A stretch of 24,000 nt of DNA from Terriglobia bacterium (GTDB taxonomy: Bacteria > Acidobacteriota > Terriglobia > Bryobacterales > Bryobacteraceae), in NCBI GenBank assembly GCA_963823095.1, contig CAWGKI010000019.1:309705-333704 (forward strand). Direction: 5' to 3'. Position 1 is the first letter of the stretch; each line of letters opens with the position of its first letter. A program made the translations under genes and the position numbers. Shown here piece after piece: positions 9,015 through 13,129 of this stretch. Under the pieces are notes generated by a model that saw only the letters and a program-made list of their open reading frames with translations, had not been told where the DNA came from and did not search any database.

Positions 9015-9982
9015 GCGTCGCGTTCCCGTTGTTTCAAGATAAGCTCCAGGCGAATGGGCTCTTCCCGCTGACGGCGACGGGCATCTCCGTCTTCCAGATC
9101 AACGTGGGCAAGCTGTGCAATCAGACCTGCCGCCACTGCCACGTCGAAGCGGGGCCGGACCGCAAAGAGCGCATGACGCGCGAGACCGCGGAACTTTGCA
9201 TGGCCGCGCTCGAGAAGACGAGCATTCCGACTGTCGACATTACGGGCGGAGCGCCCGAGTTGAACGCGAACTTCCGCTACTTGGTCGAGCGTTCGCGCGA
9301 ACTGGGCCGGAACGTGATGGACCGCTCGAATTTGACAGTCTTCCTGCTGCCGTCACAAGCGGGCTTGGCCGAGTTTTTGGCGCATCACCAAGTCGAAATC
9401 GTCGCCAGCCTGCCCTACTTCCTGGAGCAGCAAACCGACGCGCAGCGCGGCCTCGGCGTCTTTTCGAAGTCGATCGAAGCGATCCGGATGTTGAACGGAC
9501 TCGGCTACGGTTCGCCCGAGAGCGGACTGAGGTTGAACTTCGTTTTCAATCCGGCCGGTGCGTTCCTGCCACCCGCGCAGCACGCCATCGAAGCGGATTT
9601 CCGGCGGGAACTTCGGCGCCGCTACGGCATCGAATTCAACTCGCTCTATGCCCTGGCGAACGTGCCGATCGGACGTTTTCGTGAATTCCTCGACGCCAGC
9701 GGCAACTACGAGCCGTACATGCAGCGCCTGGTGAACGCCTATAACCCCGTCGCGGCGGCGGGGGTGATGTGCCGCTATACCTTGTCGATCGGCTGGGACG
9801 GAGCGCTCTACGACTGCGACTTCAACCAGATGCTGGGCCTCGAAACGAACCACGGAGCGCCGGCTCACATCCGCGACTTCTCATTGGAAATGCTCAACCG
9901 GCGTCAGATCGTCACCGGACAGCATTGCTACGCCTGCACTGCCGGCGGCGGGTCGAGTTGCACCGGCGCGAGCATCAAGTAA
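9011..9982 (+). CDS. arsS: arsenosugar biosynthesis radical SAM protein ArsS
   Basis: 323 aa with the radical-SAM cluster motif CNQTCRHC and the C-terminal Cys-rich tail CRYTLSIGWDGALYDCDFNQ...HCYACTAGGGSSCTG typical of the ArsS family. The start is translationally coupled to the upstream AhpD-like gene. Confidence 0.85.
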   Translation: MSVAFPLFQDKLQANGLFPLTATGISVFQINVGKLCNQTCRHCHVEAGPDRKERMTRETAELCMAALEKTSIPTVDITGGAPELNANFRYLVERSRELGRNVMDRSNLTVFLLPSQAGLAEFLAHHQVEIVASLPYFLEQQTDAQRGLGVFSKSIEAIRMLNGLGYGSPESGLRLNFVFNPAGAFLPPAQHAIEADFRRELRRRYGIEFNSLYALANVPIGRFREFLDASGNYEPYMQRLVNAYNPVAAAGVMCRYTLSIGWDGALYDCDFNQMLGLETNHGAPAHIRDFSLEMLNRRQIVTGQHCYACTAGGGSSCTGASIK

Positions 9983-10070
9983 TCGCGAGTATCGCCGGAC
10001 TTGTCTCCGGATTAAAACACGCGTCGTGAGTTCGATCGCGAGTTTTAGCATCTGATACGCTCTTTCAAGG

Positions 10071-10409
10071 ATGAAGCTTCCTAACGGCGCTGCGGCGATC
10101 GTCGAAATGTCCAAGCTCCGAGATTACTGCCTCGATCCGTATCATTCCCGCGGCCGGCACAAAGCCCGCATGTTCCAGTCCACACTGGGGATTTCCCAGG
10201 CGGACGCTGGCTGGCTGCGTGCGGCGTTGATTGCGGCGGCCGGCGAAGCGGACGCGGTGGAAGGTGTATCCGATGAATACGGCGACCGGTACACAGTGGA
10301 TTTCGAAATCAGCCGAAGCGATCGCCGTGCAATGCTCCGGAGCGCTCGGATTGTCTTCCGGGGCGAGACGGCACCGCGTTTGACGAGTTGTTTTGTACTA
10401 TTGAATTGA
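10071..10409 (+). CDS. DUF6883 domain protein (putative toxin-like partner of DUF4926)
   Basis: 112 aa. KLRDYCLDPYHSRGRHKARMF...GDRYTVDFEI...IVFRGETAPRLTSCF matches my recollection of the DUF6883 pattern. The next gene follows 9 nt downstream. Confidence 0.65.
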   Translation: MKLPNGAAAIVEMSKLRDYCLDPYHSRGRHKARMFQSTLGISQADAGWLRAALIAAAGEADAVEGVSDEYGDRYTVDFEISRSDRRAMLRSARIVFRGETAPRLTSCFVLLN

Positions 10410-10417
10410 GGTGCGCT

Positions 10418-10636
10418 ATGCGCGAACTCGAGCTGCTTTCCGTAGTTGCGCTGCTGGAAGACGTCTCCGGTAAGGGTCTCCTGCGTGGCCAGGTCGGCAC
10501 CGTGGTCGAGCGGCTTGCTGCCGGTGTATACGAGGTCGAGTTCAGCGACGACGAGGGGCGTTCGTACGCGGAGCTTCCGCTGCGGGCGGAACAGTTGCTC
10601 CAACTGCATCACGAGCCGACTCATCGGGCGGCCTGA
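10418..10636 (+). CDS. DUF4926 domain protein
   Basis: 72 aa from ATG 10418, with GAGGTG 5 nt upstream. MRELELLSVVALLEDVSGKGLLRGQVGTVVERLAAGVYEVEFSDDEGRSYAELPL is the typical DUF4926 pattern. The annotated ORF start at 10388 is probably too early. Confidence 0.65.
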   Translation: MRELELLSVVALLEDVSGKGLLRGQVGTVVERLAAGVYEVEFSDDEGRSYAELPLRAEQLLQLHHEPTHRAA

Positions 10637-10796
10637 ACAGGCGACCGGCGACCGGGGACAGCCTGACCCGTCCCATCTGCAACTCATTGAGCGCAGGGAA
10701 TTTGGTGAATCAGAGCAGGTGAGTATCAGATTCCTCCCGCCCCCATGCTGCTTGCCCGCCGCTTGATCGTATATCCGATAACCCCAGACAGAGTCC

Positions 10797-10991
10797 ATCG
10801 GCTGGGACGGAGCGCTCTACGATTGCGACTTCAACCAGATGCTGGGCCTCGAAACGAACCACGGCGCGCCCGCCCACATCCGCGACTTTTTCGTGGAGAT
10901 GCTCAACCGGCGGCAGATTGTCACCGGTCAGCATTGCTATGCTTGCACCGCCGGCGGCGGGTCGAGTTGCACGGGCGCGAGCGTCAAGTAG
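10797..10991 (+). pseudogene. 5'-truncated copy of the arsS 3' end (last 64 codons plus stop), copy 1
   Basis: Translates without interruption as IGWDGALYDCDFNQMLGLETNHGAPAHIRDFFVEMLNRRQIVTGQHCYACTAGGGSSCTGASVK*. The first 68 nt differ from arsS 9788-9855 at 1 position. The remaining 127 nt differ at about 17 positions, mostly synonymous. Confidence 0.9.
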
Positions 10992-11002
10992 TCAGCCGGC
11001 CG

Positions 11003-11542
11003 TTACTGGATCTTGGCCAGTTCCTGCTCGATCACACGCTTCATCTGCTCGAATTCCGCCGCTTCGTACCCGGAGGATTGGAATGCAATCCTGCCGTCGG
11101 CCCCGACCACGTAACTGCGCGGAATGCCGGCATTCGCAAACCGTTTGTAGATGGCGCGGTGCGGATCTGCGGCCAGCGGATAAGTAACGCGAAGCTTCGG
11201 CAACTCCTTGAGGATCACACCCTGCGTCTGTTCTCGCGCAATACCGACCATGGCGAACTTGCGGGACTTGAATCGGAGCCAGACTTCCTTCTCCAACTGC
11301 GGCATCTCCCCGCGGCACGGCCCACACCACGTCGCCCAGAAGTTCACCAGCAGGACTTTCCCCTTGAGGTTCTGTACATCGAACTTCTCACCCTTGATGC
11401 TGGACACCGTGAACGCAGGCATAGCTTGGCCAACCTTGGTGTACGTCTCCCACTTCACATCGGCAGGTGCAGCGTCCTGACCGCTGGCGAAGAACTGAGC
11501 CGTCAGTACCGCAATTGGCAACCAGCGGATCGATCTCATCAT
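11003..11542 (-). CDS. TlpA/ResA-family thiol-disulfide oxidoreductase (redoxin), secreted or periplasmic
   Basis: Start MMRSIRWLPIAVLTAQFFASGQ (signal peptide) at ATG 11542. Thioredoxin motif LVNFWATWCGPCRGEMP. The longer ORF reaching 11737 has no support. Confidence 0.85.
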   Translation of the reverse strand: MMRSIRWLPIAVLTAQFFASGQDAAPADVKWETYTKVGQAMPAFTVSSIKGEKFDVQNLKGKVLLVNFWATWCGPCRGEMPQLEKEVWLRFKSRKFAMVGIAREQTQGVILKELPKLRVTYPLAADPHRAIYKRFANAGIPRSYVVGADGRIAFQSSGYEAAEFEQMKRVIEQELAKIQ

Positions 11543-12046: not shown

Positions 12047-12074
12047 TTGACACGTTCCGCCGGTTTGTTATGCT
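12047..12074 (+). promoter_or_regulatory. candidate sigma70-type promoter of the AbrB/RelE module
   Basis: TTGACA (12047-12052), a 16-nt spacer, then TATGCT (12069-12074), 51 nt upstream of ATG 12126. Confidence 0.4.
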
Positions 12075-12084
12075 ACCGGCAGGG

Positions 12085-12099
12085 GTCAGGATTCCTGAC
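12085..12099 (+). promoter_or_regulatory. candidate operator palindrome
   Basis: gtcagg-att-cctgac is a perfect 6-bp inverted repeat just downstream of the putative -10 element. TA antitoxins typically autoregulate at sites in this position. Confidence 0.3.
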
Positions 12100-12125
12100 T
12101 TCCGGATTTAGTGAACATTCGGCAT

Positions 12126-12475
12126 TATGAACTCGACTACCAGAATTCAGCACAAGGGCCAGGTGACCATTCCCACTCGCGTCCGCGAACTCGCCGGGTT
12201 GTCGAAGGGCGACCTGGTGGAGTTTTCTTTTCAACGCGGCAAGATCGTCATCACGCCGAAGCTGATTGATTGACCGTTCGAAGTTTCCGAACGCCGGCAA
12301 CGAGTACACGCCGGAGCAGCGCCGCGTGATCGACGGCCGCCTGGCTTTGGCCGACGCCGACATCAAGGCGGGCCGCGTATCCAAAACCTTCTCGAACGCC
12401 GGCGATTTCATCGCCGATTTGCAGAAAGCAGTCAAGAAGAACCGCAAGGCCGCAAGTAAACGCGCCGCCAAATGA
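12126..12475 (+). pseudogene. AbrB/MazE/SpoVT-type antitoxin with C-terminal extension, disrupted by two small insertions
   Basis: MNSTTRIQHKGQVTIPTRVRELAGLSKGDLVEFSFQRGK is in frame 0. The canonical continuation IVITPKLI is in frame +1, after the aaa at 12240-12242. The rest, LIDRSKFPNAGNEYTPEQRRVIDGRLALADADIKAGR...KRAAK*, is in frame +2, after an apparent gatt/gatt 4-nt duplication at about 12264-12271. Confidence 0.65.
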
Positions 12476-12717
12476 ACATTCGCCGAACCACTCACTTCGA
12501 TCGCGCCTACGGCAAAGCGCCTGAGGATATCCAGGCCGCATTTAACAAACAACTGGTACTCCTGCTTCAGAACCTCCGCCATCCCTCGCTCCACGCCAAG
12601 AAATACGACGAAGGTCAAGACCGCTGGTAGGCTCGTGTCACTCGCGACTGGCGATTCTATTTTCGAATCGAAGATGACACGTACATCCTGCTCGACATCA
12701 TCCCTCGCCCCAAGTAG
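12472..12717 (+). pseudogene. RelE/ParE-family toxin with an in-frame TAG
   Basis: The ATG overlaps the antitoxin stop (aATGa). MNIRRTTHFDRAYGKAPEDIQAAFNKQLVLLLQNLRHPSLHAKKYDEGQDRW-TAG(12628-12630)-ARVTRDWRFYFRIEDDTYILLDIIPRPK*. The family pattern continues in frame across the stop codon. Confidence 0.75.
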
Positions 12718-12814
12718 TAGTCATTCAATCCTGCATCGACTCGCTCAGCCCACCAAGTATCTTTCGAACGAGGTGGCTGGCAATAACTGACGCTCCCCCT
12801 CCGTCCTGTTCGCG

Positions 12815-13129
12815 ATCGGCCGCTTCCGCGATTTCCGGGATGCCAGCGGAAAATGCGAAGCGTACATGCAGCGGCTGGTGCAGGCGTACAACCCCGTGGC
12901 GGCGGCGGGGGTGATGTGCCGCTATACGCGGCCCATCGGCTGGGATGGAACGCTTTTCGACTGCGACTTCAACCAGATGCTGGGCCTATCGACCAACCAC
13001 GGCGCACCCACGCACATCCGCGACTTTTCCGTGGAAATGCTCAACCGGCGGCAGATCGTCACCGGCCAGCACTGCTACGCGTGTACGGCGGGCGGTGGCT
13101 CGAGTTGCACGGGCGCGAGCGTCAAGTGA
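12815..13129 (+). pseudogene. 5'-truncated copy of the arsS 3' end (last 104 codons plus stop), copy 2
   Basis: IGRFRDFRDASGKCEAYMQRLVQAYNPVAAAGVMCRYTRPIGWDGTLFDCDFNQMLGLSTNHGAPTHIRDFSVEMLNRRQIVTGQHCYACTAGGGSSCTGASVK*. It is colinear with arsS 9668-9982 with no indels and roughly 14-20% nt divergence. Weak similarity may extend to about 12808. Confidence 0.9.

Follow-up and report, generated by a model that had tools for sequence, protein, structure and literature searches.

The 3′ ends of two convergent core genes, arsS and icd, recur downstream of the intact genes in a 24,000-nucleotide stretch of DNA from a Terriglobia bacterium (contig CAWGKI010000019.1, positions 309,705 to 333,704; the whole stretch is referred to below as the window). 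Behind the intact arsS two further copies of its 3′ end lie on the same strand, and icd, on the opposite strand, has one such copy of its own; blocks of cargo genes lie between. The locus is a case of 3′-end displacement at a hotspot between convergent core genes, for which arsS is a new target and icd a classical one. As to its origin, we put at about even odds (a probability near 0.5) the proposal that host homologous recombination, working at an integrase-free hotspot, would have displaced the gene ends between arsS and icd. The features on which this reading is built are listed here by window position.

8682–9014, forward strand: arsenosugar-associated peroxidase-like (CMD/AhpD) gene (TIGR04169, 185 bits, cut-off 120; Pfam CMD)
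9011–9982, forward strand: intact arsS (TIGR04167, 429.6 bits, cut-off 300; Pfam DUF3641 and Radical_SAM)
9983–10022, forward strand: post-stop hairpin (TCGCGAG..CCGGA..TCCGGATT), terminator-like, in the 3′ untranslated region of the functional arsS
10797–10991, forward strand: fragment B, the last 65 arsS codons and a TAG stop, in frame, 5′-truncated
12815–13129, forward strand: fragment C, the last 105 arsS codons and a TGA stop, in frame, 5′-truncated
15903–16013, reverse strand: icd 3′ fragment, the last ∼36 codons and stop, in frame (repeat family D5)
19868–21121, reverse strand: intact icd, NAD-type isocitrate dehydrogenase (Iso_dh; TIGR00175, 442 bits), convergent with arsS

The product of arsS is a radical SAM arsenosugar biosynthesis protein; the last 65 to 105 codons of the intact gene are copy A in what follows. 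Its start is overlapped by the 3′ end of the CMD gene, the first member of a conserved CMD-arsS pair that is syntenic in all relatives. A first-pass annotation, made from the letters of the window alone, had placed the end of arsS at 9982 and two 5′-truncated direct copies behind it, and these coordinates were reproduced to the base; an independent repeat search also recovers the three-copy family (D1), with all three members on the same strand within 3.3 kb. The copies were compared by ungapped alignment anchored at the stop codons. A (9788–9982) and B (10797–10991) differ at 18 of 195 nucleotides (nt), A (9668–9982) and C (12815–13129) at 53 of 315, and B and C at 27 of 195. Neither fragment has an indel or an internal stop before its own stop codon, so the uninterrupted frames reported earlier are real, and so is the rough equidistance of the three tails: recounted over the last 127 nt, the differences number 17 (A–B), 20 (A–C) and 17 (B–C), or 13–16%. 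The copy tips are 84–87% identical in DNA and 91–95% identical in protein.

Both fragments start abruptly, at points of the gene 120 nt apart, and end exactly at the stop codon. The homology of B possibly begins a few bases earlier, at 10788–10793, where the sequence GTCC is common with the alleles of relatives and to which a tblastn match extends (10788). A start motif CGATCGG shared by B and C was considered and dropped, since against the relatives' alleles the homology of B runs upstream into this GTCC. When the sequences 3′ of the three stop codons were compared, nothing was found in common. The post-stop hairpin of ∼40 nt is common to A and to the relatives (loci here numbered with the prefix L) L201, L219 (upstream copy), L203 and L213, and is partly present in L208 and L209; it is absent from B, and C retains no more than a degenerate form.

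Upstream of the CMD-arsS operon, a tandem array of ∼5.4 copies of a 122–127-nt unit (7909–8593) runs from the 3′ end of an M24 peptidase open reading frame (ORF) to just before the operon, with a hairpin-like core (CACCACCCTGAAACGGAGCCGCGACCGTGAGGGAGTGGTTG) in each copy. An array of this type also stands upstream of CMD in L201; there was no match in Rfam.

The substitutions within the fragments identify them as former functional gene ends, in service until recently and with a history of purifying selection. The ratio of non-synonymous to synonymous substitution rates (dN/dS) is 0.058 for A–B (13.5 synonymous and 3.5 non-synonymous changes) and 0.09 for A–C, the latter composed of 0.14 to the left of a 26-nt sequence common to the three copies (the 26-mer, below) and 0.049 from this sequence onward; pairs of functional orthologues in the clade give 0.004–0.11. 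Synonymous divergence (dS) between the arsS copies is 0.4–0.8 (0.4–1.4 with the icd comparison included), which is the distance between species of the clade, and over the last 127 nt no pair among A, B, C and five relatives is much closer than any other. Because an idle duplicate would show a dN/dS near 0.5, the copies diverged while functional, in different genomes. The earlier view that the differences are mostly synonymous, and that the fragments are once-functional gene ends and not decaying local duplicates, is therefore upheld. Fragment C is uneven: to the left of the 26-mer it carries unusual substitutions, several of them non-conservative, while to the right it matches the functional arsS of L201 without a single difference for 101 nt.

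Two explanations that start from duplication fare poorly against these data. Decay of old full-length arsS paralogues, of which the fragments would be the last remains, would suit three same-strand copies within 3.3 kb and the non-conservative changes in the left part of C; however, dN/dS is as low as for functional genes, abrupt starts and ends exactly at the stop are at odds with decay, and the same pattern is found at icd on the other side. Tandem full-length arsS paralogues, which the first-pass annotation had named as the finding that would turn it to this explanation, were seen in no relative examined, and a scan of genomes for ArsS found a second arsS 3′ copy at none of 80 loci. We consider paralogue decay very improbable, and largely refuted. 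The second explanation invokes double-crossover exchange at the flanking genes, with the fragments derived from separate local tandem duplications plus replacement of cargo, and with the similar part of A and B a product of recent conversion. Tandem duplication predicts shared downstream sequence, which the three stop codons do not have; a dS of 0.4–0.8 together with a dN/dS below 0.1 speaks for divergence while functional, unlike an idle duplicate; and the right half of C is the functional allele of the closest relative. On dN/dS and the lack of common downstream sequence, local duplication was rejected. The explanation as a whole, to which other evidence is kinder, is in our estimate unlikely.

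The same 3′-end phenomenon appears, from sequence comparison, at icd; this feature is absent from the first-pass annotation, as is any remark on the lack of recombinase genes. The icd fragment differs from the intact end (19868–19978) at 27 of 111 nt with a dN/dS of 0.086, and is separated from the intact gene by a 3.85-kb block in which toxin-antitoxin genes are numerous. The true start of icd is probably downstream of the first GTG of its ORF.

If DNA had been inserted between arsS and icd, relatives might retain an empty site or hold other cargo at the same junction, and a search for both had been proposed; both were found. The source clade is Bryobacteraceae-like Acidobacteriota: the best genome match (L001) has 82% ArsS identity, and ArsS proteins from metagenomes reach 89–96% identity to that of the window, whose exact ArsS sequence was not found in the contig index. 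The contents of the gap are as follows.

L001: empty, arsS and icd stops separated by 9 bp
L220: empty, arsS and icd stops separated by 19 bp
L209–211: a 218-aa gene and PepSY
L203/205/206: unknown genes and DUF433
L208: NOV_C and ParDE
L213: an MmeI-like restriction-modification gene
L218 and L219: AbrB/ParE and a 105-codon arsS fragment
L222: contig ends before icd; yet another unknown gene after arsS

The closer relatives (ArsS 89–96%) keep the order CMD-arsS...icd-purH and have at least five cargo sets between arsS and icd; empty sites occur only in the two more distant relatives. In L201, the closest relative found, the first cargo block of the window also follows arsS, with 90% nucleotide identity. 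The toxin-antitoxin module of L219 is 87% identical to window 12031–12814, and the fragment in L218 and L219 has the left boundary of C (GCG before the boundary, ATCGG after it): toxin-antitoxin genes and 105-codon fragment form a module shared by two lineages. Short “fragment” ORFs returned by the protein search in three other relatives proved to be a frameshifted full gene (L221), an arsS with an uncalled 5′ part (L220) and an arsS cut by a contig end (L222). Relatives with other cargo have no arsS or icd fragments, and scans of IMG/VR viral contigs with a 23-mer and a C-terminal peptide found no arsS fragment. That most relatives have different cargo and no fragments is as expected of flanking-gene replacement by double crossover (PMC3787668).

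The first-pass annotation had also described a step in divergence along B and had taken it for a crossover junction. Its numbers reproduce exactly: between A and B there is a single difference in the first 68 nt (offset 26), against 17 in the 127 nt that remain. Divergence is non-uniform when all three copies are considered. The first 68 nt hold nine sites at which A and B agree against C (AB/C) and one AC/B site, and the remaining 127 nt hold eight AB/C, eight BC/A, five AC/B and four three-way sites (Fisher p = 0.003–0.009 for the contrast). For A and B alone, Fisher's test with the invariant 26-mer excluded gives p = 0.047, and a maximum chi-square test puts the break at offset 68 with a permutation p of 0.11. 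The step comes 15 nt or more after the 26-mer; in B, the 27 nt to the left of this core carry the GALY allele, which is characteristic of the lineage to which the window and L201 belong. The last 127 nt form a fine mosaic, with BC/A sites clustered at offsets 68–131 and AB/C sites at 137–164.

The step is real and is moderately supported. It fits a crossover scar, with B as the former resident end, but could equally be a later gene-conversion tract bounded by the edge of homology. The crossover interpretation of the annotation thus survives in part: non-uniform divergence stands, whereas the permutation result is modest and a conversion tract accounts for the step equally well. Its broader suggestion, of incoming DNA that supplied a 3′ end of its own to replace the resident one, draws strength from the empty site, the hypervariable interval and the 101-nt identity of C with L201. 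Every viable model of the locus shares this suggestion, with recombination of the incoming DNA inside the resident gene and retention of the old end downstream. Double-crossover exchange with local duplication has in its favor the fine mosaic of the last 127 nt, the modest significance of the step and a conversion-type patch in L201.

The 26-mer lies within the three copies at the positions given here.

9815–9840, forward strand: 26-mer of copy A, encoding CDFNQMLG(L)
10824–10849, forward strand: 26-mer of fragment B, identical to 9815–9840
12962–12987, forward strand: 26-mer of fragment C, identical to 9815–9840

Its identity in all three copies had been noticed before and was reproduced; it occurs exactly three times in the window, and any match was found in 0 of 100 shuffles. 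The peptide CDFNQML is invariant in all 80 ArsS genes examined, from diverse phyla, and unrelated GC-rich phyla have the first 22 nt without a change. Among the matches listed in a metagenome scan, the exact 26-mer is present in more than 120 contigs (unrelated GC-rich arsS genes) and arsS-end arrays in none. Judged from these comparisons, the 26-mer is conserved mainly by codon constraint, is not lineage-specific, and needs no recombination function to account for it.

Window arsS was further compared with 79 distant arsS genome loci, chosen by protein similarity, for the longest exact DNA match. This match overlaps the 26-mer in 32 of the 79, far above any other part of arsS, and reaches 28–30 nt. 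In E. coli, about this length is the least that allows RecA-dependent exchange to be efficient. Read most simply, the 26-mer would be a place at which homology still lets diverged arsS sequences recombine; it acts as a junction probably because it is the longest identity patch between them.

Two relatives have mosaic genes that change at this point. In the functional arsS of L201, the core and the 27 nt ahead of it match A exactly; from the start of the core, 101 nt (the core and a further 75 nt) match fragment C at 100%, after which the gene is A-orthologous again. This pattern is that of a conversion-type patch and suggests that such tracts may occur at arsS. In L202, the arsS sequence immediately beyond the 26-mer becomes that of a distant ArsS lineage, to which other ArsS C-termini are ∼62% identical; what directly follows is not a mobile element but the start of a TIGR04282-like arsenosugar gene. 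The L202 end looks like a piece of a foreign arsenosugar cluster that was grafted on at the conserved motif; it may instead be an artefact of chimeric assembly. The candidate recombination core of the first-pass annotation is weakened, its conservation being largely a matter of codons, but it still behaves as a junction in L201 and L202.

The gene start behind the divergent arsS end of L202 (1340–1578, P0020) is that of a TIGR04282-like arsenosugar glycosyltransferase.

Under host homologous recombination, at least three events (twice at arsS, once at icd) would have brought in DNA consisting of a copy of the flanking gene's 3′ end and cargo, mostly toxin-antitoxin modules, which recombined inside the 3′ end of the resident gene. 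The incoming end would become functional, and the resident end would be pushed downstream as an in-frame, 5′-truncated fragment. Joining would be the work of the host machinery, presumably dependent on RecA, and not of an element-encoded integrase. The likely route would be a single Campbell-type crossover of a circular intermediate; alternatively, one side may have been joined by a homologous crossover and the other illegitimately. Crossover would take hold where the available identity is longest, in arsS the CDFNQML 26-mer and its flanks; copies may afterwards exchange short patches by gene conversion, and toxin-antitoxin genes may outlast later deletion through addiction. Any order of the insertions can be proposed only tentatively.

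We favor host homologous recombination because recombinase genes are absent across many cargo states, because fragment lengths vary (65 and 105 codons of arsS, ∼36 of icd), because junctions fall at the best identity patch, because the donor in L202 is not a mobile element, because conversion-type patches are present, and because the same architecture has been proposed to result from C-terminal displacement in Rhs genes (PMC2935791). It is also possible, if somewhat speculative, that toxin-antitoxin and defence cassettes of the clade move without a recombinase of their own by way of a “homology handle”, the 3′ end of a conserved gene: host recombination would insert them at the codon-constrained identity patch of that gene, so that islands build up between convergent core genes, and the old ends, once displaced, would serve as a store of alleles from which gene conversion can copy back into the working gene.

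Several observations weigh against host homologous recombination. At this hotspot, displacement with a retained fragment is exceptional, since the relatives with other cargo have none. Statistically the A/B step is modest, and it is inseparable from a conversion tract, and the near-identity of the first 68 nt of A and B is not predicted by a simple Campbell crossover alone: it calls for a closely related donor, heteroduplex repair or later conversion. The significance attached earlier to conservation of the 26-mer as a recombination signal is weakened, codon constraint, which the annotation had itself listed as a counter-explanation, being largely sufficient. L201 and L202 are low-coverage metagenome contigs whose mosaics could be assembly chimeras. 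That two independent junctions fall at one 26-mer might also point to a site-specific core. Finally, the architecture is exactly what integrase-borne islands leave, and integrase genes can be deleted.

This last point leads to the alternative that decayed islands or prophages encoding an integrase integrated serially and site-specifically into the 3′ ends of arsS and icd, their phage-type attachment site (attP) carrying the replacement end, and that deletions later removed the integrases and left addictive toxin-antitoxin genes and gene fragments on the attR side. The precedent is e14 in E. coli icd, where insertion supplies a new 3′ end and leaves a 163-bp icd′ pseudo-copy at the far side (PMC6379469). 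As with e14 and phage 21, the cargo here lies between direct repeats of the 3′ end of the target gene, the gene is restored by the incoming copy, and one of the two targets is icd itself, a classical integration target that also has its fragment. The partly pseudogenised, toxin-antitoxin-rich cargo and the low-GC middle block are typical of old islands, the mosaic junctions of L201 and L202 coincide at one 26-mer, and the toxin-antitoxin and fragment module has the same boundary in two lineages. Yet no integrase, excisionase, transposase, phage gene or recognisable remnant was found in the 9.9-kb arsS–icd interval by ORF-level searches of Pfam and PHROGs, and a six-frame Pfam scan of all unassigned stretches for recombinase remnants gave as its single match one more Gp49-like toxin fragment. 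No recombinase is listed in the arsS–icd intervals of relatives, which include five other cargo states. Unlike e14 and phage 21, the blocks of the window are only 0.8–3.9 kb long, and the two events at arsS differ in where the fragment starts; no arsS-bearing viral contig was found, the replacement end of L202 is followed by an arsenosugar pathway gene and not by element DNA, and conservation of the 26-mer needs no attachment function. We regard decayed islands as the main rival, serious though less probable than host homologous recombination.

A related arrangement is known at the 3′ end of fda in S. thermophilus, where integrative elements and cis-mobilizable elements (CIMEs) have accreted in tandem, flanked by attachment (att) sites and some without recombination genes. 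CIMEs depend on the integrase of a related element acting at conserved att sites. The present locus resembles these arrays in that blocks are lined up at the 3′ end of one gene, but no such integrase is seen here, nor a conserved att site beyond the codon-constrained 26-mer.

A close architectural parallel to host homologous recombination at arsS is C-terminal displacement in Rhs genes, in which variable fragment lengths are set by the position of the recombination breakpoint (Jackson et al. 2009, PMC2935791). The mechanism proposed for Rhs is homologous recombination by way of a circular intermediate, in which no dedicated recombinase takes part (PMC2935791). As in Rhs arrays, an intact gene is followed by same-strand, 5′-truncated fragments that keep conserved sequence, with small genes between them; fragment lengths vary, and old ends are shunted downstream, not deleted. 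Orphan CdiA-CT and MafB cassette arrays are similar to the displacement arrays of Rhs. Unlike Rhs, arsS is the gene of a metabolic enzyme and not of a polymorphic toxin, its displaced tips are near-synonymous versions of one another instead of non-homologous alternative toxin domains, and the intervening genes are toxin-antitoxin genes, a redoxin and other cargo, not cognate immunity genes: the relevant diversity at arsS is in the cargo and not in the protein tip. Minimal mobile elements offer a further comparison, and are described as undergoing clean replacement by double crossover in the account of Saunders and Snyder (2002) given in PMC3787668. Within the terms of that account, the likenesses are different gene sets between the same conserved genes in close relatives, a variable region without mobility genes, and recombination mosaics in the flanking gene (L201 and L202, which are metagenome contigs, and the triplet comparison at p = 0.003–0.009); unlike the elements as so described, the window and L218/219 retain old gene ends as direct repeats, and therefore at least some events were additive.

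Many hotspots for accessory and defence genes lack a recognisable mobile element, and the initial entry of DNA into them is poorly understood. The present locus keeps scars of entry (three displaced ends, two convergent core genes, an empty site and alternative cargos), which makes the question testable. If the integrase-free reading is true, the displacement mechanism of polymorphic toxin genes would extend to ordinary housekeeping genes, and foreign DNA would enter at the longest codon-constrained identity patch near a gene end; if the integrase reading is true, the locus would be just a tidy example of islands that accreted and decayed at two targets, new or classical.

The cargo between the gene ends is listed below.

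9983–10796, forward strand: cargo block 1, with a DUF6883 gene (10071–10409) and a DUF4926 gene (10418–10636; Pfam)
10992–12814: cargo block 2, comprising the next four features
11003–11542, reverse strand: ResA/TlpA-like redoxin
11725–12017: nested inverted repeat, 300 nt, with 34-nt outer arms and 33-nt inner arms
12127–12475: AbrB/MazE-type antitoxin, broken by a frameshift at a GATTGATTGA repeat
12472–12717: ParE-like toxin with an in-frame TAG
13130–15902: low-GC block (GC 0.51–0.57 versus ∼0.62), between the two outermost displaced ends
13334–13750: in the low-GC block, Cys-rich secreted protein of 138 aa with a signal peptide
13732–14598: in the low-GC block, ORF of 288 aa, no Pfam, PHROGs or NCBIfam match
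15210–15713: in the low-GC block, truncated Gp49/HigB-like toxin and helix-turn-helix antitoxin as a single ORF
16014–19867: icd-side cargo, with MNT/HEPN, Gp49-like toxin, DUF5615/DUF433 and PepSY-TM-like genes
16069–16801: MNT/HEPN pair, icd-side cargo
16936–17289: Gp49-like toxin split by a frameshift, icd-side cargo
17171–17599: ORF adjoining the Gp49-like toxin, no Pfam, PHROGs or NCBIfam match
17773–18359, reverse strand: DUF5615 (PIN-like)/DUF433 pair, icd-side cargo
18510–19804, reverse strand: two PepSY-TM-like genes, icd-side cargo

The DUF6883/DUF4926 pair of block 1 looks, from its two-gene layout, like a toxin-antitoxin module, and the ORF at 17171–17599 may by its position be an antitoxin. 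Several toxin-antitoxin genes of the window are already broken (12127–12717, 15210–15713 and 16936–17289). The low-GC block, whose low GC was noted over 13130–15400, stands where L001 and L220 have just the 9–19 bp of their arsS–icd gap. Integron cassettes were considered and rejected: there is no IntI integrase, and the block boundaries are gene-end copies, not attC-like hairpins. A shufflon was rejected as there is no invertase. Rfam searches of the whole window at the gathering threshold, and of 7800–13400 at E ≤ 1, returned nothing credible, for integron features as for others.

The nested inverted repeat of block 2 folds as one long hairpin (−102.8 kcal/mol, z = −12) and resembles a miniature inverted-repeat transposable element (MITE); no further copies were found in the window or in the fetched loci. 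It sits at the edge of a segment that is missing from L219. A dispersed palindromic element of ∼95 nt is present at 1446–1540 and 6476–6576 of the window, with small GC-rich hairpins of the type GCACGCTTCAGCGTGC, and again in L203 (3686–3780) and L213 (2091–2185) with 94% identity at a different genomic location. These palindromes probably belong to a repeat family of the clade that resembles repetitive extragenic palindromic (REP) sequences or MITEs. A similar cluster of hairpins is located at 22554–22658 of the window.

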